Shown piece after piece: positions 1 through 11,137 of a DNA stretch of 11,137 bases (positions are counted from its first letter, which is position 1; each line of letters opens with the position of its first letter). The position numbers and the translations under genes were made by a program. Location: IMG/VR virus record IMGVR_UViG_2541047596_000006; one strand, 5' to 3'. This DNA is from a virus (taxonomy: Duplodnaviria; Heunggongvirae; Uroviricota; Caudoviricetes). The notes beneath the pieces are model-generated. The model had not been told where the DNA came from. It was given only the letters and a program-made list of their open reading frames with translations, and did not search any database.

Positions 1-19
1 CTATTTGATAAATATTAAA

Positions 20-1315
20 TTAATTTTTCATTGCTTCGTTATGGGGCATGGTTGGGGCAAACTCGCTTAACTGTGTATTTAACAAAGCTACCTGTGCATT
101 ATTGTTTTCAGACATCCATTTTCCGTATACCTGAAATACCATTTGCGCATCTGCATGGCCCATCTGGTTTGCTATAAATGCCGGGTTAGCACCAGCTGTC
201 AGCGACCAGCAGGCATAAGTATGTCTCGACTGATATGATTTTCGATGGCGGAGTCCGGCACGTTTTATCGCTGCGTCCCACATCTGCCTTATTGAGTCAA
301 CGGTAAAATGGTCACCATAATTTTTTACTCTCGCTGACACTTCAGGTTGAAAAACAAAGGTGCATTTTTGTTTTTCTGTTCTGCCATACTCTCTGAGGTG
401 AACATCAATGATATGCTCTTTGCTCAGTCTCGTTAATGTCATCTGACTCCGGAGAGCGTCGATTGCTGGCTTAATAAGATGAATGACCCGATTGGTTCCC
501 GCCTGTGTTTTTGGTACCGTGAAACGGTCTTTTGCTAAATTTCTCCTGATCATCATTGTTCCATTTTTCAGATCTATGTCCTCCCATCCAAGTGCACACA
601 GCTCACCAGGGCGAACGCCAGTATAAACAGAAACACACCATAAATTTTTTGCTTGCTGATTTCTGCACGCATCGATAAGACGGATAAATTCTTCCCGCGA
701 AAGAGGATCCGGAATGGTTCTTGATTCCTTTAATGGCGAGATCCCCTTAAACGGATTATCTGCCAGGTAACCGTTATCAACACCAAACTGGAACACGGCG
801 TTAAGATTTGTCATGTAATTAATTACAGTTACAGCCGATCTCCCTGGTTGTGTAACAATATAGTTACTTTTGGGGATCTGGTATCCAGTCAGTAACTCTT
901 TACGAACCTCCAGTAATTTTTCTTTATTAATCGATGAGGCAAGATTTTTTTCACCGATTATGCTCAGGATATTTTTGATGACGGCACGGTATGTGTTGAG
1001 TGATGTTTTGGCGACTTCAGTTTCTTTCAGTGCCAGAAATTTTTCAGCCAGTTCTTTTATGGTTAAATCTTGTCGGGCCTCACCAAATTTTTCCAGATTG
1101 CGTGAGGAGGGAAACTGTTTTGCATAGTCGAAAACACCAGTTTTTATTGCGTAACAAACAGAGGAGCGTAGTTCACCTGCAACGCGCCTGTTTTTTGCTG
1201 TGTCAGGAACCCCCAGATTTTCCCTGACTCTTACGTCTTTATAAACAAACCAGATACGTAATTTCCCTCCATGGTTTTCCACGCCTGTCGGATATTTCAT
1301 TTCAACTTCTCTCAT
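20..1315 (-). CDS. Phage-type tyrosine integrase (site-specific recombinase), 431 aa
   Basis: Longest ORF in the window. The C-terminal half carries the tyrosine-recombinase catalytic layout (conserved R, then H-x-x-R, then a Y near the C-terminus: ...HTYACW...). Position at the element edge with an xis-like ORF immediately upstream on the same strand is typical of lambdoid int. An alternative start at Met6 (MKYPTG...) is possible. Confidence 0.88.
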   Translation of the reverse strand: MREVEMKYPTGVENHGGKLRIWFVYKDVRVRENLGVPDTAKNRRVAGELRSSVCYAIKTGVFDYAKQFPSSRNLEKFGEARQDLTIKELAEKFLALKETEVAKTSLNTYRAVIKNILSIIGEKNLASSINKEKLLEVRKELLTGYQIPKSNYIVTQPGRSAVTVINYMTNLNAVFQFGVDNGYLADNPFKGISPLKESRTIPDPLSREEFIRLIDACRNQQAKNLWCVSVYTGVRPGELCALGWEDIDLKNGTMMIRRNLAKDRFTVPKTQAGTNRVIHLIKPAIDALRSQMTLTRLSKEHIIDVHLREYGRTEKQKCTFVFQPEVSARVKNYGDHFTVDSIRQMWDAAIKRAGLRHRKSYQSRHTYACWSLTAGANPAFIANQMGHADAQMVFQVYGKWMSENNNAQVALLNTQLSEFAPTMPHNEAMKN

Positions 1316-1334
1316 TAGTTAGTGTGGCTTTTAG

Positions 1335-1667
1335 TCAAGTAAGATGACGTCTTGGTCTCGCTGATGCCTGGCGCTCAATCCAGCGATCAATTTCTTCCAG
1401 GTTGTAAAAGCATGGACTGTTATCCCATGGCATACCGTCATGAGCGACATGCTTATATTCCCTTCCTTCCATAAACGATTTTTCCCGGGCCTTTTTTAAC
1501 GTACCTTTTTTTATTCCTTTCAGCGCAATTAACTGCTCTTCGGATGAGCGTTCTTGCCAGAGAGCTGGTAGCCAGTGGCGATGTATACAACTCCGGCTAC
1601 GGGTTATTCCCCTCTGAACAGGCGCGTAAGGACTGGCAAAACGCCCGCAAAAAACTCTCGAGGGCAA
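1335..1667 (-). CDS. Excisionase-like protein (lambda Xis-like segment in the C-terminal half); start codon uncertain
   Basis: The ORF ends 20 nt upstream of the int start on the same strand. The segment ...GTLKKAREKSFMEGREYKHVAHDG... resembles the lambda Xis core (...WVRECRIFPPPVKDGREYLFHESA...). The N-terminal 45 residues are Cys/Arg-rich and overlap a plus-strand ORF, so the true start may be internal or the gene may be decayed. Confidence 0.4.
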   Translation of the reverse strand: MPSRVFCGRFASPYAPVQRGITRSRSCIHRHWLPALWQERSSEEQLIALKGIKKGTLKKAREKSFMEGREYKHVAHDGMPWDNSPCFYNLEEIDRWIERQASARPRRHLT

Positions 1668-1840
1668 AGGTGAAGAAACCTGCTGTGGTTGATCCGGACC
1701 TTATCTGGTCATCACCTGACGGAGAAATACGTCGCTACGACAGTCGCCTAAACATAATCTGTCGCGAGTGCCGGAAGAGCGAAGTTATGCAGCGCATACT
1801 GGCTTTCTATCAGGGTAATTTTCAGGACGTGGCGCAGTGA
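1544..1840 (+). CDS. Hypothetical protein, overlapping the xis-like ORF on the opposite strand
   Basis: The ORF stop overlaps the GTG start of the downstream methyltransferase ORF by 4 nt (GTGA), a pattern typical of translational coupling. A GTG at 1670 preceded by GAGGG is an alternative start giving 56 aa and avoiding most of the overlap with xis. No family recognised. Confidence 0.3.
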   Translation: MSVLARELVASGDVYNSGYGLFPSEQARKDWQNARKKLSRAKVKKPAVVDPDLIWSSPDGEIRRYDSRLNIICRECRKSEVMQRILAFYQGNFQDVAQ

Positions 1841-2193
1841 GTGCACCGGCAACCATTCTTGATATGTGCTGTGGCAGCCGCATGTTCTGGTTCGATAAGT
1901 CTGACGAACGGGCGATATTCAGCGATATCAGAAAAGAAGGATACACATTACGCAATGGGAGACGCTTGATTATCAGCCCTGACATTATCGCAGATTTTCG
2001 TGCATTATCATTTGCAGACGCATCTTTTTCGATGGTTGTATTAGACCCTCCGCATCTTGAGAGTGTTGGTGATAACGCCTGGATGGGAAAGAAATATGGA
2101 CGGCTGAATAAAGATGCCTGGCGTGATGATTCGCGACAGAGATTTAAAGAAGCCTTTCGGGTGTTGAGGCCGCACGGCGTTCTGATTTTTTAA
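1837..2193 (+). CDS. SAM-dependent amino-methyltransferase fragment (N6-adenine/N4-cytosine type), probably truncated by a premature TAA
   Basis: Motif I-like LDMCCGSR (SAM-binding glycine-rich loop) and, about 55 residues later, a motif IV-like VVLDPPH ((D/N)PP(Y/F/W/H) amino-methyltransferase signature). 118 aa is too short for a complete methyltransferase fold, and the same frame stays open for 29 more codons after the TAA at 2191-2193 (to 2283). Confidence 0.55.
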   Translation: MSAPATILDMCCGSRMFWFDKSDERAIFSDIRKEGYTLRNGRRLIISPDIIADFRALSFADASFSMVVLDPPHLESVGDNAWMGKKYGRLNKDAWRDDSRQRFKEAFRVLRPHGVLIF

Positions 2194-2455
2194 TGGAATG
2201 AAACGCAAATACCGGTAAGCCAGATTCTGGCACTGACAGACAGAAAACCTGTTATCTGTCAACGAACAGGGAAAAAACGATAAAACCCACTGGATTATTT
2301 TTATGAAAGAGGCATCCAGTGAGTAGATTCGTAAGGCTACAGATACGTATATCTGAATAATTAAATTCAGTTCTGTAAATAAAATTTAATCCTTAACCGG
2401 ATGGATTTCTGCACCCTCAGAACATCAGGAGGCCGCCCGAAAGGGCGGTAGTGAA

Positions 2456-2638
2456 ATGCGAAAGTTCAAAATTATTATTGAAACGGGAATAGCTGGTGGA
2501 GATTTTGAGGATGTATTCGAAGTGGACGATGACGCAACACCTGAGGAAATTCATGACGGAGCATAAGAAATTTTCTTTAACTACTGCAATTACTCATACC
2601 ACGAAATAAAAGACGATGAGGAAGAACAAAGTGGCTGA
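2456..2638 (+). pseudogene. Small acidic ORF interrupted by one in-frame TAA (at 2564-2566)
   Basis: ATG at 2456 encodes MRKFKIIIETGIAGGDFEDVFEVDDDATPEEIHDGA, then TAA; the same frame continues as EIFFNYCNYSYHEIKDDEEEQSG to a TGA at 2636-2638. Protein-like composition on both sides of the stop. Confidence 0.3.
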
Positions 2639-2807
2639 TTTTTGTTCAGCTAAATATAACATCAGTTTTGAAGAGCGGGATGAACTATTAATGGACTATG
2701 GTGAGTTACGCGGTGGAAGTGCTGCTGATGTCGAATCCTAGCGTGATGACTATGAAGCGGGAAAAACTCCGGTCGAAGCATATTGTGATGAGTGGGGCGA
2801 TGAATGA
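2616..2807 (+). pseudogene. Small ORF interrupted by one in-frame TAG (at 2739-2741)
   Basis: MRKNKVADFCSAKYNISFEERDELLMDYGELRGGSAADVES, then TAG, then RDDYEAGKTPVEAYCDEWGDE ending at TGA 2805-2807, which overlaps the next ATG (ATGA). There is no in-frame start after the amber codon. Confidence 0.3.
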
Positions 2808-3090
2808 GCGAGATTAATTATCAGGAAGGGCATGAAACGGCGGGGCAAGCAAAACCAGTGGCATGGCGATATCGCTACGTGAAAAAAGGCGTTACGGACT
2901 TTCAGGGGAAGTAGTGGTCTGGTGACTGGAAATATGTACCGAAAAAAGAGGATTGTAACGACAGGCCGAACTATCAAATTCAGGCCTTATTCACTGCCTC
3001 ACCAGTCCCAGTTACATCAGAAGAACTGGTTAAAGCTGTGCACTTTTATGAACAACTAAAACGCGAAAATCCACCAACATCCGGCAACTA
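2804..3090 (+). pseudogene. 94-codon ORF interrupted by one in-frame TAG (at 2912-2914)
   Basis: MSEINYQEGHETAGQAKPVAWRYRYVKKGVTDFQGK, then TAG, then WSGDWKYVPKKEDCNDRPNYQIQALFTASPVPVTSEELVKAVHFYEQLKRENPPTSGN. Protein-like on both sides and no start codon after the stop. The start is coupled to the upstream ORF by an ATGA overlap. Confidence 0.35.
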
Positions 3091-3345
3091 GATTAATGGA
3101 TTAACTATGTCGGTTAAACGACCAGCCAACTGAAAAAGCGGAAACCTGATTACAGGTTGCCAGATAAGGCAATGAGCTACCTGGCGCGGAACGGACTGAT
3201 AAGTATGGGGAATGTTTTACGATGAACCTTTAGACTAAAGAGTTTGTAACGCTATGTAAGTGATTTTTTCTGGTTTAGATATTTATATGTCCGGCCAAAT
3301 TGAGGTGTGTTTAAATGTAATTGCACATTGATTGTAGGAGGAATA

Positions 3346-3525
3346 ATGAAAAACGCATTGCAGTTTTTGTTTGTTGCGTTCTGGTTGTTCGCATCATGTA
3401 TGCCCATCATCTTCACAGCAAGGTATATGGAAAAAGTTGATGTTTTGATATTAATATTTGGATATATAAATGCCCTTTTTTTAGGGGTGTTCATGGCGGT
3501 CATGTGCATTGAATACTGGCGGTAA
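3346..3525 (+). CDS. Small predicted membrane protein (59 aa, two hydrophobic helices)
   Basis: ATG at 3346 preceded by a near-consensus Shine-Dalgarno (GTAGGAGGAATA-ATG). The product MKNALQFLFVAFWLFASCMPIIFTARYMEKVDVLILIFGYINALFLGVFMAVMCIEYWR has two hydrophobic segments separated by a short charged loop. The ORF track's 72-aa version starts at an upstream ATG (3307) without a ribosome-binding site. Confidence 0.5.
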   Translation: MKNALQFLFVAFWLFASCMPIIFTARYMEKVDVLILIFGYINALFLGVFMAVMCIEYWR

Positions 3526-3831
3526 ATACAGCGAACTCCATTGGTTTAGTTGGATATTTACTGTGCTGGACAAAAACGGTTTGCGGGGAAATCTTAGTTA
3601 AGTAGAATGACTGCGGGTGCTTGAGGCTATCTGCCTCGGGCATGGACACCAACGGCAGATAGAGAAAAGCCCCAGTTAACATTACGCGTCCTGCAAGACG
3701 CTTAACATTAATCTGAGGCCAATTTCATGCTAGACACATGTAGGTTAGCCTCTTACGTGCCGAAAGGCACGGAGAAGCAGGCTATTGTTAACACCAAGCT
3801 GTAATGTCCCCTTTGAACCATTCTAAAATGT

Positions 3832-3858
3832 CCCCAGACAATTCTCTGGGGGATTTTT
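3832..3858 (+). promoter_or_regulatory. Terminator-like hairpin (CCCCAGA-caattc-TCTGGGG followed by GATTTTT) directly upstream of the transposase ATG; its 3' arm contains the likely ribosome-binding site
   Basis: Seen in sequence: a 7-bp stem (5 GC pairs) and a T5 run ending 2 nt before the ATG at 3860. The GGGGG that would serve as Shine-Dalgarno is inside the stem. Insertion sequences commonly use such a structure to block read-through transcription or translation of the transposase. Confidence 0.4.
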
Positions 3859-3859
3859 C

Positions 3860-5173
3860 ATGATCAAAGAGACTGTTACGATGAGTCATAAGGAACTCCA
3901 CCGACTTCAGATTATTCAGGAACAAGCTGCGGCACGCATTGGCATTTCTATTCGGCAGGTTAAACGTCTGGTGCAACGGTATAGAAATGAAGGGCCTTCT
4001 GGTCTGGTTTCCCACCGACGTGGAAAGCGTCCTAATAATTCCTTTTCTACTGAATTCAGAGCAACAGTAATTTCACTCCTCAAAGGCCGTTACGCTGATT
4101 TTGGACCTACGTTTGCGTGCGAAAAATTGCGCGAGATACACGGTTTATCTTTATCCGTTGAAACTCTCAGAAAGTGGATGATAGAAGAGGGGTTATGGCG
4201 TGAACGCCGTCGTAAAATTGCCCGTATATATCAACGCCGCATGCGACGACCATCTTACGGTGAACTGATCCAGATTGATGGCTCACCTCATGACTGGTTT
4301 GAAAATCGAGGCCCCAGATGTACACTGATCGTTTTCATTGATGATGCCACCAGTGCGTTGATGGCGTTGCGTTTTGTGCCTGCTGAAACAACCCGGGCTT
4401 ACATGGAAACCCTCCGGGGTTACCTTAATGATCATGGCGTACCGCTCGCTCTCTACTCTGATAGACACAGTATATTCAGGGTAAATAACCCAGAGCGGGA
4501 AGGTGAGCTGACCCAGTTCACTCGTGCGATAAAGACACTGGGCATCGAGCCAATCCATGCCAACAGCCCGCAGGCAAAAGGGCGGGTAGAGCGCGCCAAT
4601 CAGACACTACAGGACAGGCTGGTCAAAGAAATGCGGCTTCAGAATATCAGTGATATTGAAACAGCAAATGCATGGTTGCCGACCTTTATTGAAGCCTATA
4701 ACAACCGGTTCGCTACGTCGCCTCGTACTACTGATAATGCTCATCTTGATGTGCACCATTCTGAAGAGGAACTGGGTTATATCTTCAGCCTACAGGCGAA
4801 GCGCGTTCTGTCTAAAAATCTCACTTTCCAGTACAAAAGCAGTGCGTTTCAGGTACGCAGTGAGGGCCGGGGATATCGACTTAGGCATTCGGTTGTTACT
4901 GTATGCGAGAACTTTGACGGTGAAATTAACGTTCTGTATGACGGGAAAGCGCTGGGCTGGGAAAAGTATGTTGATGGCCCGGAGCCTATACCACTGGATG
5001 ATGAAAAGAGTGTCCATGAACGAGTGGATAATGCCCGTATTGATTTACGCTCAAAATACTATGTTAAACCTAAAGCTGACCATCCCTGGCTTACGCGCCG
5101 AACGCAAAGTCATCAGCAAGTTAAGCCCCCGAAGTTACCTAAAAAGAAGCCTGATCCCGATAAAAAAGATTGA
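3860..5173 (+). CDS. DDE transposase of the rve/integrase-core superfamily with N-terminal helix-turn-helix; most consistent with the ISNCY (IS1202 group) or IS481 family
   Basis: 437 aa. N-terminal helix-turn-helix (...RIGISIRQVKRLVQRYRNEG...). Catalytic core with D (LIQIDGSPH), D (LYSDRHSIF) and E (KGRVERANQTLQ) at the spacing typical of retroviral-integrase-like transposases. Basic C-terminal tail. Met8 (MSHKELHRL) is an alternative start. Confidence 0.85.
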   Translation: MIKETVTMSHKELHRLQIIQEQAAARIGISIRQVKRLVQRYRNEGPSGLVSHRRGKRPNNSFSTEFRATVISLLKGRYADFGPTFACEKLREIHGLSLSVETLRKWMIEEGLWRERRRKIARIYQRRMRRPSYGELIQIDGSPHDWFENRGPRCTLIVFIDDATSALMALRFVPAETTRAYMETLRGYLNDHGVPLALYSDRHSIFRVNNPEREGELTQFTRAIKTLGIEPIHANSPQAKGRVERANQTLQDRLVKEMRLQNISDIETANAWLPTFIEAYNNRFATSPRTTDNAHLDVHHSEEELGYIFSLQAKRVLSKNLTFQYKSSAFQVRSEGRGYRLRHSVVTVCENFDGEINVLYDGKALGWEKYVDGPEPIPLDDEKSVHERVDNARIDLRSKYYVKPKADHPWLTRRTQSHQQVKPPKLPKKKPDPDKKD

Positions 5174-5564
5174 AACCAAGATCGATTCGGTTGAGTGCAT
5201 ATCCATTCATAGGGTAGATTCTTAAGTCGCGTTTCTGGTGTTCATTTTCGGGTGGTTTGTTACTTGTTTTACCGGGGATATGCCAGAAACGCGCTGAGTC
5301 AGTCTGGGCGGTGCGCGTAATGAGGCGTTATGGTAAATAGCCTATGCTAATGTCCGCTAAGAGCAAGAAGCGGAAGTTGGCAGTTTTGTGGACTGTCCCC
5401 ACAAAAGTGACTACAGAAATAGTTGCAATTCATAATTGATCATGGGTTGTCAGTTAAACTCGTGGCGATTTAAATAGACTAATTGGGAGTGCGTCCATTA
5501 CTTATATCTTGTAATGTTAACTATCAGAAATGATACAAAGATAATATGTCTTTAAAGAAAAGGC

Positions 5565-5595
5565 TGATGGCGAAAAGTGGCCCGATGAGGGCCAC
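5565..5595 (-). terminator. Rho-independent terminator downstream of flxA
   Basis: Plus-strand GTGGCCC-gatga-GGGCCAC (5577-5595) is a 7-bp GC-rich stem. On the minus strand it is followed by a T-rich tract. It lies about 15 nt past the flxA stop. Confidence 0.5.
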
Positions 5596-5609
5596 AATAC
5601 GGCTGTCAC

Positions 5610-5942
5610 TTAGACGTAAATATCAATGGTGCCAGCGGTATTTGTATCGTCTTTTTTCTCTTCTTTTTTATCAGGCTGAACTGTCGCGTCTTCATTCTTT
5701 TTCTCTGCCTGCTGCCTTAACAACTGCTCCAGTTGAGCCCAGAGGCTTTCAATTTGCTTCTGTACCAATGCAGCCATTTCTTTTTTCTGCTGTGTCGTCA
5801 TCCCCTCTTCCGATGAGATTTTCCCAAGCTTTTCAGTCAGCACCTGAATTTGTCTTGTGATTTTGGCTATTTCTGATGTTCCTTCCGGGGCGGAGTTGTT
5901 TGAAATAACGGTTGAGGTATTTCCCTGAATTGTGACAGACAT
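5610..5942 (-). CDS. flxA: FlxA (sigma-28-dependent flagellar-regulon protein encoded in the Qin prophage)
   Basis: The 110-aa product MSVTIQGNTSTVISNNSAPEGTSEIAKITRQIQVLTEKLGK...TIDIYV matches my recollection of E. coli FlxA in length and sequence. Shine-Dalgarno AAAAGGAGA sits 7 nt upstream. A sigma-28-type promoter lies just upstream. Confidence 0.85.
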   Translation of the reverse strand: MSVTIQGNTSTVISNNSAPEGTSEIAKITRQIQVLTEKLGKISSEEGMTTQQKKEMAALVQKQIESLWAQLEQLLRQQAEKKNEDATVQPDKKEEKKDDTNTAGTIDIYV

Positions 5943-5965
5943 AGATTTCTCCTTTTAAAAAAGCA

Positions 5966-5992
5966 CTATCGGCATGCACAAAAAAATCTTTA
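5966..5992 (-). promoter_or_regulatory. Sigma-28 (FliA) class promoter for flxA
   Basis: On the minus strand TAAAGATT-N11-GCCGATAG, against the FliA consensus TAAAGTTT-N11-GCCGATAA (14 of 16 positions, exact 11-nt spacer). The -10 element lies about 25 nt upstream of the flxA ATG. Confidence 0.6.
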
Positions 5993-6144
5993 ATCGTATT
6001 TCTTGTGTCATTAATTGTTTGATGTTCAGATTGTTTTCCTCGCGGGCTGGCGCGCCTCAGAAAGTAAAGCTTGTTGACAGGGGTAAACGTTCGGCAATAA
6101 TTTTCTGCCGCATGCGGGTGTTGCATAAAACGTGTTACGTTCCT

Positions 6145-6450
6145 TTATCGACAGGTCAGGTCACCGCTCACCCGCCGACGAGAAAGCAACACTGACATGC
6201 TAAAGCAAAAAATAGATGAATAAGTTGAGTTGTGCATATGTAGCCTGACCGTCACAAAGTATATGGTGTCTGTACCAGTAAGATGATGGCCGGACTCTTT
6301 AAAAACGAGCAGACCTGCACAATACAGGATGGACTTAGCAATGGCTGCTCCTGGCACAAAGCGGACAGTGATCACCGTTCTTACGACTACTTTCTGACTT
6401 CCTTCGTGACTTGCCCTAAGCATGTTGTAGTGCGATACTTGTAATGACAT
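6145..6450 (-). CDS. Hypothetical ORF between flxA and relB (ydfV-like position and length); coding status doubtful
   Basis: 101-aa ORF in the position where E. coli K-12 annotates the 101-aa ydfV between relB and flxA. The composition is atypical and there is no recognisable domain. Confidence 0.25.
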   Translation of the reverse strand: MSLQVSHYNMLRASHEGSQKVVVRTVITVRFVPGAAIAKSILYCAGLLVFKESGHHLTGTDTIYFVTVRLHMHNSTYSSIFCFSMSVLLSRRRVSGDLTCR

Positions 6451-6463
6451 TTGTAATTACAAG
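6411..6463 (+). promoter_or_regulatory. relBE promoter with overlapping operator palindrome
   Basis: TTGCCC-17nt-GATACT is a sigma-70-like -35/-10 pair. The inverted repeat CTTGTAAT-gacatttgta-ATTACAAG (6438-6463) contains two TTGTAAT hexads and overlaps the -10 element, consistent with RelB/RelE autorepression. Confidence 0.6.
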
Positions 6464-6474
6464 AGGTGTAAGAC

Positions 6475-6714
6475 ATGGGTAGCATTAACCTGCGTATTGA
6501 CGATGAACTTAAAGCGCGTTCTTACGCCGCGCTTGAAAAAATGGGTGTAACTCCTTCTGAAGCGCTTCGTCTCATGCTCGAGTATATCGCTGACAATGAA
6601 CGCTTGCCGTTCAAACAGACACTCCTGAGTGATGAAGATGCTGAACTTGTGGAGATAGTGAAAGAACGGCTTCGTAATCCTAAGCCAGTACGTGTGACGC
6701 TGGATGAACTCTGA
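6475..6714 (+). CDS. relB: RelB antitoxin (type II toxin-antitoxin)
   Basis: The 79-aa product MGSINLRIDDELKARSYAALEKMGVTPSEALR... is near-identical to my recollection of E. coli RelB. Its stop overlaps the relE start (TGATG). Confidence 0.95.
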   Translation: MGSINLRIDDELKARSYAALEKMGVTPSEALRLMLEYIADNERLPFKQTLLSDEDAELVEIVKERLRNPKPVRVTLDEL

Positions 6715-7001
6715 TGGCGTATTTTCTGGATTTTGACGAGCGGGCACTAAAGGAATGGCGAAAGCTGGGCTCGACGGTACGTGAACAGTTGAAAAAGAAG
6801 CTGGTTGAAGTACTTGAGTCACCCCGGATTGAAGCAAACAAGCTCCGTGGTATGCCTGATTGTTACAAGATTAAGCTCCGGTCTTCAGGCTATCGCCTTG
6901 TATACCAGGTTATAGACGAGAAAGTTGTCGTTTTCGTGATTTCTGTTGGGAAAAGAGAACGCTCGGAAGTATATAGCGAGGCGGTCAAACGCATTCTCTG
7001 A
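6714..7001 (+). CDS. relE: RelE toxin (ribosome-dependent mRNA interferase)
   Basis: The 95-aa product MAYFLDFDERALKEWRKLGSTVREQLKKKL...VISVGKRERSEVY matches E. coli RelE and is translationally coupled to relB. Confidence 0.95.
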   Translation: MAYFLDFDERALKEWRKLGSTVREQLKKKLVEVLESPRIEANKLRGMPDCYKIKLRSSGYRLVYQVIDEKVVVFVISVGKRERSEVYSEAVKRIL

Positions 7002-7072
7002 ACCAAAGCATGACATCTCTGTTTCGCACCGAAGGTGACACTTCTGCTTTGCGTTGACAGGAGAAGCAGGCT

Positions 7073-7228
7073 ATGAAGCAGCAAAAGGCGATGTTAATCG
7101 CCCTGATCGTCATCTGTTTAACCGTCATAGTGACGGCACTGGTAACGAGGAAAGACCTCTGCGAGGTACGAATCCGAACCGGCCAGACGGAGGTCGCTGT
7201 CTTCACAGCTTACGAACCTGAGGAGTAA
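7073..7228 (+). CDS. hokD: Hok-family type I toxin (HokD/RelF), 51 aa
   Basis: Not in the supplied ORF track (under 60 aa). My translation is MKQQKAMLIALIVICLTVIVTALVTRKDLCEVRIRTGQTEVAVFTAYEPEE: an N-terminal transmembrane helix and the conserved Hok C-terminal half. It is the third gene after relBE, as in Qin. Confidence 0.85.
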   Translation: MKQQKAMLIALIVICLTVIVTALVTRKDLCEVRIRTGQTEVAVFTAYEPEE

Positions 7229-7296
7229 GAGACCCGGCGGGGGAGAAATCCCTCGCCACCTCTGATGTGGCAGGCATCCTCAACGCACCCGCACTT

Positions 7297-7327
7297 AACC
7301 CGCTTCGGCGGGTTTTTGTTTTTATTT
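7297..7327 (+). terminator. Rho-independent terminator ending the relBE-hokD transcript
   Basis: AACCCGC-ttcg-GCGGGTT stem-loop followed by TTTTTGTTTTTATTTT. Confidence 0.6.
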
Positions 7328-7438
7328 TCAACGCGTTTGAAGTTCTGGACGGTGCCGGAATAGAATCAAAAATACTTAAGTAGCGCGCAGGGATAAGAGG
7401 GATGGTCCCTTAAGGGTAAAGGGATTGTTCTGGATGAA

Positions 7439-7672
7439 AAAAGAACCCGGTTTCATGGCGTACCGGTATATAAGATTTGTGGGCGTTGTAATGGAAACCG
7501 GTTTAGTCGTTTACCGACCACGCTGGCACGACGTCATGTCCAGAAGCTGGTACCAGACCTGACCGATTATCAGTGGTATAAGGGGTATGCGGACGTCATT
7601 GGTAAACTGGTAACAAAGTGCTGGCAGGAAGAAGCATACGCGGAAGCGCAATTGAGGAAGGTGACGAGATAA
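7439..7672 (+). pseudogene. 3' remnant of a Q-like late antiterminator gene (no start codon)
   Basis: Open frame without an ATG start translating to KRTRFHGVPVYKICGRCNGNRFSRLPTTLARRHVQKLVPDLTDYQWYKGYADVIGKLVTKCWQEEAYAEAQLRKVTR. It has a Cys-rich zinc-finger-like segment and a basic C-terminus, and sits where Qin carries quuQ, between hokD and cspF. The family call is by recollection and context. Confidence 0.35.
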
Positions 7673-7703
7673 ATGATTTTTGCTGAAGATGGCGACATGA
7701 TGT

Positions 7704-7732
7704 TTGCATTTTTCAAAAAATATGGATAAAAT
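7704..7732 (+). promoter_or_regulatory. Strong sigma-70-like promoter (TTGCAT-17nt-TAAAAT), candidate late promoter (PR'-like) downstream of the Q remnant
   Basis: The -35 TTGCAT and -10 TAAAAT with a 17-nt spacer were read directly. It lies about 35 nt past the Q-remnant stop and about 45 nt before a strong terminator, the arrangement of PR'/qut/tR' in lambdoid phages. Confidence 0.35.
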
Positions 7733-7777
7733 TTTTTCAACGATGGGCTTTGTATACCCGACGTTAAGAAAAAGTAG

Positions 7778-7805
7778 AAAACCCGCTGATGAGCGGGTTT
7801 TGTGC
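7778..7805. terminator. Strong, probably bidirectional, intrinsic terminator (AAAACCCGCT-gatg-AGCGGGTTTT)
   Basis: A 10-bp perfect stem with T-rich flanks on both strands. Confidence 0.55.
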
Positions 7806-8093
7806 TTTAAATGGGGCAATGGTAATGTTGAATCTCATCCCGGGACTCATGTCTGTTAACTTATTATTTAGCTGGTGACTTGGTTATTTGCCTGATGTTT
7901 AAAATGTTTTCTTCCAGTACAATGTCCCTAAACACAATGAGTCTGCTTATTATATTATTAGCAGAGCTATTACGGCCAAAGTACAGCATAAGCTTTTAAA
8001 GCCAATCAACCAGTCATCAAGACAGACGGGGTTATTCATAAAAACTCTCCATGTGTGATCCGATGGGGCCTGAAATTAAAGCTTTAATATAGC

Positions 8094-8306
8094 TCATGAA
8101 AGGTAAACATTGGCAGCTGAAGGGCCACGCAGACCATTTATCCGGCAAAATTCCACGCGTAATCCGGTGGTAATTTCTTCTGCATCGCGGAGATTGAGCG
8201 CTGAAACATGAAGCTGGACATCGATACGACCATCGGATGGGGTGATAAGACCCTTGCCGCTTTTGCCGTCAAAGGTTTTGACAATTCCTGTCATTTTACG
8301 GGACAA
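8094..8306 (-). CDS. cspF: CspA-family cold-shock protein paralog (CspF-like), 70 aa
   Basis: [70 protein letters not shown] has the cold-shock-domain architecture but degenerate RNP motifs, as in CspF/CspH. It is divergent from cspB, as in Qin. Confidence 0.85.
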
Positions 8307-8606
8307 AAAAATTCCTTAATACTGATAACTTGGCGCACTATACACACGTTCCTGAAGAAAGCTATAGTTTTTTGATGGGGTTGAAGATGGCTGGATGTCT
8401 AAAATAAACATTGCTTCATATGTTCAACTATGCGTTAATGATTGCGTCGGTTTGAAGAACAGACGATATACGAAGTAGTTTACTAAAGCAGTTCTCATTT
8501 CAGGTGTTATTCACTTATTCCTTCTTTGAGTCTCTCCAATTAAGTACGAAGTCGTTTCTGTTATGCAAACCATTTATGCCGAAAGGCTCAAGTTAAGGAA
8601 TGTAGA

Positions 8607-8822
8607 ATGTCAAATAAAATGACTGGTTTAGTAAAATGGTTTAACGCTGATAAAGGTTTCGGCTTTATTTCTCCTGTTGATGGTAGTAAAGATGTGTTTG
8701 TGCATTTTTCTGCGATTCAGAATGATAATTATCGAACCTTATTTGAAGGTCAAAAGGTTACCTTCTCTATAGAGAGTGGTGCTAAAGGTCCTGCAGCAGC
8801 AAATGTCATCATTACTGATTAA
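8607..8822 (+). CDS. cspB: Cold-shock protein CspB, 71 aa
   Basis: [67 protein letters not shown]... has the canonical RNP1 (KGFGFI) and RNP2 (VFVHF) motifs. A long upstream untranslated region (about 300 nt to cspF) is typical of cold-shock genes. Confidence 0.9.
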
Positions 8823-8933
8823 AATTCATCGCTCGTCTGTATACGATAACGAAGAAGGCTGATGCCTGAGTAGAGATACGGACAGAGTAGTGAATATTGG
8901 ATCTCTTTAATAAAAAGTAAGGAGGTCCAATAC

Positions 8934-8969
8934 ATGAAACAATGGCTAGCATATTTGGCAAAATCTTAA
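8934..8969 (+). other. Tiny ORF (11 codons, MKQWLAYLAKS) with a consensus Shine-Dalgarno; function unknown
   Basis: TAAGGAGGT lies 8 nt upstream of the ATG. Two further tiny overlapping ORFs follow (MLTIVVKCRFAA at about 8990; MNSFTAEANCWHGKTKCVSG, coupled by ATGA) before the terminator at 9104. Confidence 0.25.
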
Positions 8970-9103
8970 TCAGGAAAAGTATGCTAACCATTGTGGTGAA
9001 GTGCAGGTTTGCTGCATGAATAGTTTTACAGCAGAAGCTAACTGCTGGCATGGCAAAACAAAGTGCGTAAGTGGATGACTCCCACAAAAAGCACCACAAT
9101 CTC

Positions 9104-9130
9104 AAACCCGCTCAGGCGGGTTTTTTATTA
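9104..9130 (+). terminator. Rho-independent terminator (AAACCCGC-tcag-GCGGGTTT followed by TTTATTAT)
   Basis: An 8-bp GC-rich stem followed by a T-tract on the plus strand; it terminates the cspB and tiny-ORF transcript. Confidence 0.6.
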
Positions 9131-9185
9131 TCTGCTTTAAATATATTATTAAAATATAAAAAATACTTGTTACTAATAAAATCAA

Positions 9186-9356
9186 TCAGGCTACAGCTTT
9201 AAGATTTGTCTGGAATACTTTGTTGCAATGAGGGCAGATCAAAAGGGCACCTTTTTGTACTCTTGAAAAACTGTGTTCTGACTCTTGGGTGCAGTTTGGG
9301 CAGGAACATTTAACGAGATAATTACGGCGTGATTTTGAGTTTTTACGTTCTGACAT
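9186..9356 (-). CDS. Small zinc-ribbon-like protein (56 aa; C-x-C-x2-C ... C-x2-C)
   Basis: From the internal Met: MSERKNSKSRRNYLVKCSCPNCTQESEHSFSRVQKGALLICPHCNKVFQTNLKAVA. AGGA lies 9-12 nt upstream. The ORF track's longer version (start at 9407) adds a hydrophobic extension without a ribosome-binding site. It may correspond to one of the small Qin/Rac cold-shock-associated genes, but I cannot confirm. Confidence 0.45.
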   Translation of the reverse strand: MSERKNSKSRRNYLVKCSCPNCTQESEHSFSRVQKGALLICPHCNKVFQTNLKAVA

Positions 9357-9575
9357 AGGCTTTTCCTGTATAAATGGCCGTATACAGTACACTAAATATG
9401 AAAACATTTCTCGTATTATTATTTTATATATGACTTTCTTTCAAAATAATTACCCACATTTTTAATGTGTATGTTTTTTTAGCGCCGTTGAGAACAACGT
9501 GTGCTGTCAAAACTACCCCGTAGACTCCGATCTTTTCAAACATATTGCACCATCCGTGTACATCGGGGTGAGGAT

Positions 9576-9791
9576 ATGAAATCAATGGATAAGTTAACAA
9601 CAGGTGTTGCCTATGGCACATCGGCGGGTAATGCTGGTTTCTGGGCATTGCAGTTACTCGATAAAGTAACTCCGTCACAGTGGGCTGCAATCGGTGTGCT
9701 GGGTAGCCTGGTTTTTGGCCTGCTGACGTATCTGACAAATCTTTATTTCAAGATTAAAGAAGACAGGCGTAAGGCTGCGAGAGGAGAGTAA
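9576..9791 (+). CDS. essQ: Phage holin, 71 aa, lambdoid phage 21 S-type (pinholin-like) with a dual-start motif
   Basis: [71 protein letters not shown] has two transmembrane segments and a charged C-terminus. The Met1-Lys-Ser-Met4 start resembles the S21 holin/antiholin dual start. The ORF track starts 25 codons upstream (9501) without supporting signals. Confidence 0.85.
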
Positions 9792-9795
9792 TCCA

Positions 9796-10103
9796 ATGAC
9801 TCAAGACTATGAACTGGTTGTGAAAGGAGTCCGTAATTTTGAGAATAAAGTTACGGTAACTGTAGCCTTACAGGACAAAGAACGCTTTGACGGTGAAATT
9901 TTTGACCTGGATGTCGCCATGGACCGTGTTGAAGGAGCTGCGCTGGAGTTTTATGAGGCAGCAGCCAGAAGGAGCGCCCGGCAAGTCTTCCTGGAAGTAG
10001 CAGAAAAATTGTCAGAAAAAGTTGAGTCTTATCTGCAGCATCAGTACTCCTTTAAGATTGAAAATCCTGCCAATAAGCACGAGCGTCCTCATCATAAATA
10101 TCT

Positions 10104-10107
<4 letters not shown>
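9796..10107 (+). CDS. ydfR: Conserved phage protein of unknown function located between holin and endolysin (YdfR-like), 103 aa
   Basis: Ribosome-binding site GAGGAGAG. It sits between the holin and the endolysin as in Qin (essQ-ydfR-rrrQ), and its stop overlaps the endolysin start (ATGA). Confidence 0.75.

Positions 10108-11137
<1,030 letters not shown>

Follow-up and report, generated by a model that had tools for sequence, protein, structure and literature searches.

Probable debris of an internal deletion: a decayed methyltransferase gene near int and xis in a copy of the Escherichia coli cryptic prophage Qin

The closest described system for the DNA treated here is Qin (Kim), a cryptic prophage of Escherichia coli that adjoins rspA-rspB. 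The window, i.e. the whole stretch of 11,137 nucleotides from IMG/VR record IMGVR_UViG_2541047596_000006, was traced to this prophage by megablast against complete E. coli genomes and by the RefSeq annotation of the matching loci. The subject is the interval 1335–2311. It contains a truncated gene for a methyltransferase dependent on S-adenosylmethionine (SAM), an open reading frame (ORF) of 98 amino acids coupled to it, and an excisionase-like (xis-like) ORF on the other strand. The window shares with other Qin copies the chromosomal site on the rspAB side, int and xis, and, 3′ of the interval, an ISNCY element, ydfW, flxA, relBE, hokD, cspF/cspB and lysis genes; RefSeq also annotates ydfV, between flxA and relBE.

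For the methyltransferase itself, two RefSeq proteins are nearest. WP_001310834.1 (118 amino acids, 'class I SAM-dependent methyltransferase', strains MB06232 and O15_8X) is identical to the window product. WP_001275735.1, of strain 2014C-3655, is intact with 157 amino acids, and its gene follows the same GTGA-coupled DUF977 gene; its locus and the DUF977–methyltransferase region of the window (1540–2420) are 88.9% identical at the DNA level. The window product is a truncated form of this protein. Thus the comparison with full-length homologues that was called for at the outset shows the 118-amino acid ORF to be the first 118 codons of a gene for a protein of ~157 amino acids. Relative to the intact gene, the window copy is broken by a nonsense codon (K119*) and a +1 frameshift, four invariant positions are substituted, and the upstream half of the operon is lost.

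The interval is best explained, with a probability of about 0.88, as the remnants of two genes of the Qin early operon that were joined to int and xis by one recent deletion of 4,672 bp through illegitimate recombination. The ancestral rightward early operon would have consisted of a cro-like gene (dicC), a ydaT-like gene, the gene for replication protein O, a DUF977 gene and a gene for a stand-alone class I SAM methyltransferase of ~157 amino acids, the last two being joined by the 4 nt GTGA overlap. The methyltransferase copy of this Qin lineage would already have been dead, by way of K119*, the frameshift and the four substitutions, before the deletion occurred. The deletion would then have taken the promoter and regulator region of the operon, the replication gene, 42 codons of the DUF977 gene and 14 codons of xis. 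Given the deletion on top of the prior lesions, nothing in 1335–2311 is expected to be functional.

What appeared to be a methyltransferase or defence module linked to int and xis is therefore the decay debris of a well-known cryptic prophage and has very little biological weight. Nothing here is new except the private 4.7 kb deletion, which lacks general interest; hundreds of genomes already carry an annotation of the methyltransferase feature. Since this Qin copy is without xis function and without the dicA/dicC immunity region, it is predicted to be unable to excise or to be regulated as the K-12 Qin is.

The deletion junction and the overlapping reading frames

Strain O15_8X (locus L005) matches window positions 1–11115 with 100.0% identity, but as two pieces spread over 15.8 kb (megablast). 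The left piece is colinear with L005 through window position 1545 (L005 3045) and the right piece starts at window position 1543 (L005 7715). The window lacks the 4,672 bp that O15_8X carries between them, a segment that contains an exonuclease pseudogene, dicA, dicC, a ydaT-family gene, the gene for replication protein O and the 5′ end of the DUF977 gene. A gene was clipped at each end, so that xis is left without its first 14 codons and the DUF977 gene without its first 42. Compared with other Qin copies, internally deleted variants included, the window alone has this deletion, with dicA and dicC through replication gene O gone. The flanks are identical to L005 in 1545 of 1545 and 2155 of 2155 bases, which argues for a single recent event in an O15_8X-like background.

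The junction in one piece is found in none of 5,426 complete E. coli genomes by megablast, and the exact 42-mer that spans it has no match in GTDB species representatives or JGI metagenome contigs. Accordingly, the deletion either is confined to the source strain or, with lower probability, reflects an assembly error. This absence is also what an assembly or chimera artefact would produce if no real deletion existed, and the window terminates in what is presumably an IS1 terminus, which hints at a draft contig. Such an artefact is improbable, however: the order and orientation of both sides match the parent prophage, a clean microhomology of 3 bp is what illegitimate recombination typically leaves and would not suffice to confuse an assembler, and comparable internal deletions exist in other Qin variants. 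With a real deletion as the preferred reading, the methyltransferase lies next to int and xis because of the loss of the 4,672 bp. The adjacency is not an organizational feature, and a functional link to the integration module, which the original prediction implied, is not supported.

A 45-amino acid restart ORF was considered as a marker of the junction and rejected as uninformative, as it is called in many unrelated contexts. An independent deletion of 1,350 bp, with TATC microhomology, is present in many other Qin variants (loci L006–L011, at about locus position 5995, which corresponds to window 1538–1546). It joins a truncated ydaT-like gene (94 amino acids) to the same DUF977 remnant. 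Its right breakpoint is ~5 bp from that of the window, a proximity that is partly ascertainment bias, the contigs having been found via the same 98-amino acid ORF.

The mapped junction explains the puzzle of the overlapping ORFs. The program-made list contains a mechanical ORF of 110 amino acids on the minus strand (1335–1667), which the 98-amino acid plus-strand ORF overlaps. The DUF1233 match of the minus-strand ORF runs over profile positions 11–69 of 70 and through the C-terminal 59 residues only. This excisionase domain is incomplete and has no start codon of its own, the ATG and the first 14 codons (MSEVIMIVSPGKWV) having been deleted; the intact excisionase in L005 has 83 amino acids (MSEVIMIVSPGKWVSEEQL...), and the window copy begins at SEEQL. 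Positions 1546–1667 are DUF977 DNA by descent, and the minus-strand ORF is there therefore read-through from a beheaded xis. No gene with a fused 110-amino acid xis product is on record.

The 98-amino acid ORF starts at the deletion junction. Its DUF977 match covers profile positions 48–134 of 134, the N-terminal 42 of 140 residues being gone; the intact protein has 140 amino acids, or 124 in one annotation. Neither of the two overlapping readings is thus an intact gene. The supposition that one of them was wrong was correct for the xis-strand ORF beyond position 1545, but it did not foresee that the other, a C-terminal 98 of 140 codons, is no intact gene either. An intact relative of the DUF977 protein matches phrog_142, 'Ren-like exclusion protein' (E 2.6e-46), and the DUF977 gene occupies the position that ren has in lambda.

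The coupling of the 98-amino acid ORF to the methyltransferase ORF was correctly read, as the TGA stop of the former lies within the GTGA tetranucleotide. An AGGA sequence (1824–1827) is found ahead of the GTG start. The same GTGA overlap is annotated in loci L001, L002 and L005 and in L004, the locus of strain 2014C-3655, and is ancestral. In locus L003, Listeria phage A118 and Gordonia and Acinetobacter phages, the methyltransferase gene overlaps an unrelated upstream gene by four nucleotides as well. As a 4 nt overlap with whatever gene precedes is common in the family, the GTGA overlap represents ordinary operon packing. The idea that the methyltransferase needs the DUF977 protein as an obligatory DNA-binding partner was rejected, since O157 prophages and every non-enterobacterial phage examined have a different gene upstream.

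Decay of the methyltransferase gene

The original prediction of a truncated SAM-dependent methyltransferase with a DPPH motif of the amino-methyltransferase type is upheld. The 118-amino acid fragment matches the PADLOC profile MTase_II (PDLC03288) with an E value of 4.5e-45 over profile positions 3–122 of 169, and it has both motif I (ILDMCCGS, 1855–1878) and DPPH (2044–2055). Matches in Pfam are weak and generic (Methyltransf_11, E 3.5e-4). None of the profiles assigns the fragment to a specific non-DNA family, and the DPPH motif is conserved in homologues; the MTase_II score makes a chance resemblance implausible.

Conservation was assessed in an alignment of 98 homologues from Enterobacterales and Firmicutes, which are 51–89% identical to the E. 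coli reference and have 37 invariant columns. Intact members have an uninterrupted ORF of ~150–165 amino acids. In the window the ORF is interrupted twice, by the TAA at codon 119 and by an extra G (+1) in the GGG run at 2269–2271, which shifts the frame relative to intact genes in the DNA alignment. The 29 in-frame codons past the stop (2194–2280) read WNETQIPVSQILALTDRKPVICQRTGKKR, which is near the WNETQIPVRQILALTDRKPVIGQRTGK of intact homologues, and dropping the extra G and reading past the stop restores ...LIFKWNETQIPV...GKNDKTHWIIFMK. The window allele also differs at four columns that show no variation among the 98 homologues (D40N, P58S, F69L and G102R), and a fifth substitution, C39R, affects a column conserved in 96 of 98. 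Seven more invariant residues, K119, W120, Q124, P138, H151, W152 and F155, lie at or beyond the stop and are missing from the 118-amino acid product. Hence motif I and DPPH are kept, although the set of residues that is invariant in the family is not. In the AlphaFold2 model of the intact E. coli member (pLDDT 79.5, pTM 0.79), the strands at residues 140–143 and 150–156 fall past the stop, and a truncated product would lack both of them, the final two in the Rossmann-type sheet.

The question arises of whether the 118-amino acid protein is nonetheless functional and retained, for example as a SAM-binding or regulatory fragment. Its exact sequence is found on at least 1000 public contigs, annotated as a protein, and the two motifs are intact; in the set of complete genomes, identity over 1837–2340 is 99% or more in 382 records. 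However, vertical inheritance of Qin explains the wide occurrence. In addition, the final two strands and the seven invariant residues are gone, four invariant columns within the translated part are altered, and the second lesion lies further 3′, as neutral decay predicts. In the window the promoter region of the operon is deleted as well. A retained function of the fragment is therefore very unlikely.

Even less probable, to the point of being negligible, is a full-length enzyme still made by recoding, with read-through of the TAA and a frameshift at the G/A run. The frameshift does lie within a homopolymer-rich sequence, GGGAAAAAAC at 2269–2278. Yet this would require two separate recoding events, the corresponding sites of intact homologues read AAA and GG within a plain ORF, and invariant residues are mutated. 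Moreover, the O157 copy is broken elsewhere (W95 to stop), and another Qin allele, which is 98.6% identical and labelled 'frameshifted; internal stop' by RefSeq, also carries other lesions, as expected of random decay. Judged from these sequences, lesions that differ among the Qin and O157 copies, together with the pseudogenes just 3′ of the interval, represent neutral decay in a cryptic prophage.

The RefSeq annotation made by PGAP is inconsistent here, as the truncated WP_001310834.1 is named as an ordinary protein and the 98.6% identical allele is marked 'frameshifted; internal stop'. A pseudogene flag would suit the 118-amino acid product better on the contigs, at least 1000 in number, that bear this label.

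The ancestral methyltransferase family

Intact relatives belong to a large and unusually conserved family of phage proteins. The intact E. coli relative matches phrog_954, 'DNA methyltransferase' (E 3.8e-85), and the PADLOC profiles MTase_II (PDLC03288, E 1.2e-73) and oMTase, 'orphan methyltransferase' (PDLC03730, E 2.2e-49). A tblastn search detected homologues in 256 phage records that cover 36 host genera, and an exhaustive HMMER scan, with E values up to 1e-3, gave 2,008 clusters of 50% identity. The hosts include Proteobacteria, Firmicutes, Actinobacteria and Bacteroidetes, and one of the viruses is haloarchaeal. A close described counterpart is ORF50 of Listeria phage A118, a 'putative methyltransferase'. 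This and its homologues in Streptococcus, Enterococcus, Gordonia, Vibrio, Acinetobacter, Porphyromonas and Halorubrum viruses are single-domain proteins of ~150 amino acids with 38–66% identity: 64–66% in Gordonia phages, ~50% in A118 and in Streptococcus, Enterococcus, Vibrio and Porphyromonas phages, and 38% in the Halorubrum virus. Like the E. coli gene, they are located in an early replication/recombination module, often with a 4 nt overlap with the upstream gene. In contrast to the window copy, they are intact and have neighbours other than DUF977; the labels 'cytosine' and 'DNA' were given to them by similarity only.

The gene neighbourhood varies. The gene follows that of DUF977 in E. 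coli lambdoid prophages, a yfdS-like gene in O157, gp49 in A118 and a large DNA methyltransferase gene in a Gordonia phage. It is within a cluster of DNA methyltransferase genes in a Bacteroides phage, and in an Acinetobacter phage it has a small hypothetical gene upstream and recA-like and int genes nearby. No conserved nuclease or other partner gene was seen beside it in E. coli prophages or in Listeria, Gordonia, Acinetobacter, Enterococcus and Bacteroides phages, and the window copy has no restriction or defence partner either. The neighbours in the phages examined are replication, recombination or unrelated small genes and give no support to a restriction-modification module or to the alternative proposal of a modification-dependent defence module. 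The other proposal, that the fragment is the remnant of a stand-alone (orphan) phage enzyme, is upheld. The further specification of an orphan DNA methyltransferase stands in part only. It holds as regards the remnant of an orphan methyltransferase, but a DNA substrate is an annotation-level assignment, with the beta-class profile N6_N4_Mtase (PF01555) giving the repaired and joined sequence 15.6 bits against a cut-off of 26.7.

The order of motifs in the family is I (residues 7–14), II (D30), III (D53-F54) and then DPPH (residues 70–73). In the AlphaFold2 model of the intact relative, DPPH comes right after the strand at residues 64–69, i.e. in the position of motif IV. The position after strand 4 is the site of the (D/N/S)PP(Y/F/W) motif in exocyclic-amine methyltransferases. 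In the 98 homologues P72 and H73 are invariant and D70 and P71 are present in at least 90%. The motif is followed by a conserved 20-residue insertion with L74, G78, W82, Y87, G88 and L90. Motif I precedes DPPH in the family, the reverse of the order in the beta class of N6/N4 DNA methyltransferases, where motif IV (DPPY) is N-terminal of motif I.

Foldseek gives the tRNA m2G10 methyltransferase Trm11 as the top match (E 2.6e-6), and other matches are M.TaqI, TTHA0409, TrmM and m4(2)C synthase, with low TM-scores (0.42–0.56); all are nucleic-acid amino-methyltransferases. The family has in common with Trm11 and M.TaqI-type (D/N)PP(Y/F) enzymes the class I fold and a motif I located N-terminal of (D/N)PPx after strand 4. 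It differs in having His in place of the aromatic residue, in lacking THUMP and target-recognition domains, and in sequence-level matches that are all below significance. Only the catalytic Rossmann domain aligns with enzymes of the Trm11/THUMP type (TM-score 0.46–0.56), and the 157 residues include no extra domain and have no Pfam or NCBIfam match.

That the family consists of nucleic-acid amino-methyltransferases is well supported, and an intact member would methylate the exocyclic amino group of a nucleic-acid base. Genomic context and the classification by curators point to DNA as the target. The likeliest target would be phage DNA during lytic growth, with the protein serving as an orphan anti-restriction modification enzyme. 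The absence of a target-recognition domain from the 157 residues suggests low specificity, and the enzyme would have little or no preference for particular sequences.

Does the Trm11 match point instead to RNA? The ancestral protein might have been an amino-methyltransferase of host or phage RNA (tRNA or rRNA, as in Trm11- or RsmD-like enzymes) or another amino-methyltransferase, and not a DNA methyltransferase. This is rather unlikely, though it stays a serious rival. The TM-scores are low (0.46–0.58) and the fold is generic, a THUMP or other RNA-binding domain is absent, and the Foldseek matches include M.TaqI, a DNA enzyme whose motifs come in the same order. In addition, the gene resides in replication/recombination modules and adjoins DNA methyltransferase genes, and the curators of PHROG and PADLOC (in the manner of REBASE) class the family with DNA methyltransferases. 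A broader suggestion can be made only tentatively: the family may depart from conventional sequence-specific DNA methyltransferases and represent a promiscuous DNA amino-methyltransferase or an RNA-modifying enzyme of temperate phages.

The family has no Pfam entry of its own. No solved or characterized relative was found by sequence, and no experimental study of the family was found in the literature on DPPH/motif IV, on DUF977, on phage orphan methyltransferases and A118, or on methyltransferases that lack a target-recognition domain. The parent family, large and uncharacterized, is the one item here that might repay experiment.

Longer relatives exist. Some, with 248 amino acids (P0011, P0081 and others), have a C-terminal extension of ~90 amino acids, and others, with 200–320 amino acids (P0246, P0252 and others), have an N-terminal extension of 60–160 amino acids. 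Neither type of extension has a Pfam match; these add-on domains may bear on the choice of substrate. K-12 yfdM ('putative methyltransferase', prophage CPS-53) was considered as a family member and rejected, being a Dam-like NPPY fragment that shows no similarity. In strain 2014C-3655, the genes next to the intact methyltransferase gene (L004 4588–6223) are annotated 'sce7726 family protein' and 'beta family protein' and are on opposite strands. This region may be a slot for defence or moron cargo, in the position where the window has decayed small genes.

Other features of the window

The features of the interval and of the adjacent integrase gene are listed in Table 1. The integrase is labelled 'site-specific integrase' beside rspB in loci L001 and L005, and its RefSeq equivalent has 426 amino acids, which corresponds to 20–1300. 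A scan of 1200–2700 for promoters and terminators gave sites no commoner than shuffled sequence would suggest.

Table 1. Features in and beside the interval, with window coordinates
Feature	Position	Strand	Basis
Tyrosine integrase, Qin-type, apparently intact	20–1315	-	Pfam Arm-DNA-bind_2, E 3.8e-22; Phage_integrase, E 4.1e-18
Excisionase (DUF1233/XisR-type) remnant, codons 15–83 of 83	1335–1545	-	Pfam DUF1233 (PF06806), E 5.9e-26
Deletion junction, 3 bp microhomology GAT	1543–1545	.	Base-by-base breakpoint mapping against L005
DUF977 3′ remnant, last 98 of 140 codons, begins at internal Met	1544–1840	+	Pfam DUF977 (PF06163), E 8.5e-17
Spurious 5′ extension of xis-like ORF, antisense read-through up to TTG	1546–1667	-	Lies in DUF977-derived DNA
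GTGA, methyltransferase GTG start overlapping DUF977 TGA stop	1837–1840	+	Sequence
Methyltransferase pseudogene, translated part, GTG start, 118 codons and premature TAA	1837–2193	+	ORF list, alignments
Nonsense TAA (K119*)	2191–2193	+	Lys in 98 of 98 aligned homologues; AAA in L004 and L003
Untranslated 3′ remainder of methyltransferase gene, recognizable	2194–2311	+	DNA alignment, column statistics

Just 3′ of the interval there is a DUF7167 fragment (2456–2566, plus strand), which comprises 36 of ~60 amino acids (Pfam E 6e-7) and has an internal stop. The next decayed early gene (2616–3060) is labelled 'frameshifted; internal stop' by RefSeq and is followed by the ISNCY element. A full-length match to the sok antitoxin RNA (Rfam RF01794, 104 bits against a gathering score of 59) is found at 3615–3786 on the plus strand, just 5′ of the ISNCY transposase gene (3860–5173). 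No hok-like ORF is evident near it on either strand, and it may be an orphan or an IS-disrupted hok/sok locus.

A cspA-type thermoregulator RNA element (RF01766, 159 bits; 8446–8838, plus strand) is an expected Qin feature and falls where RefSeq places cspB in the matching O15_8X locus. At the right end, the final 22 bases of the window (11116–11137, GGTAATGACTCCAACTTATTGA) diverge from the Qin sequence within rzpQ, and they resemble a terminal inverted repeat of IS1. If this is IS1, the source strain has an IS1 insertion at this position and the end of the window is probably a draft-contig break.

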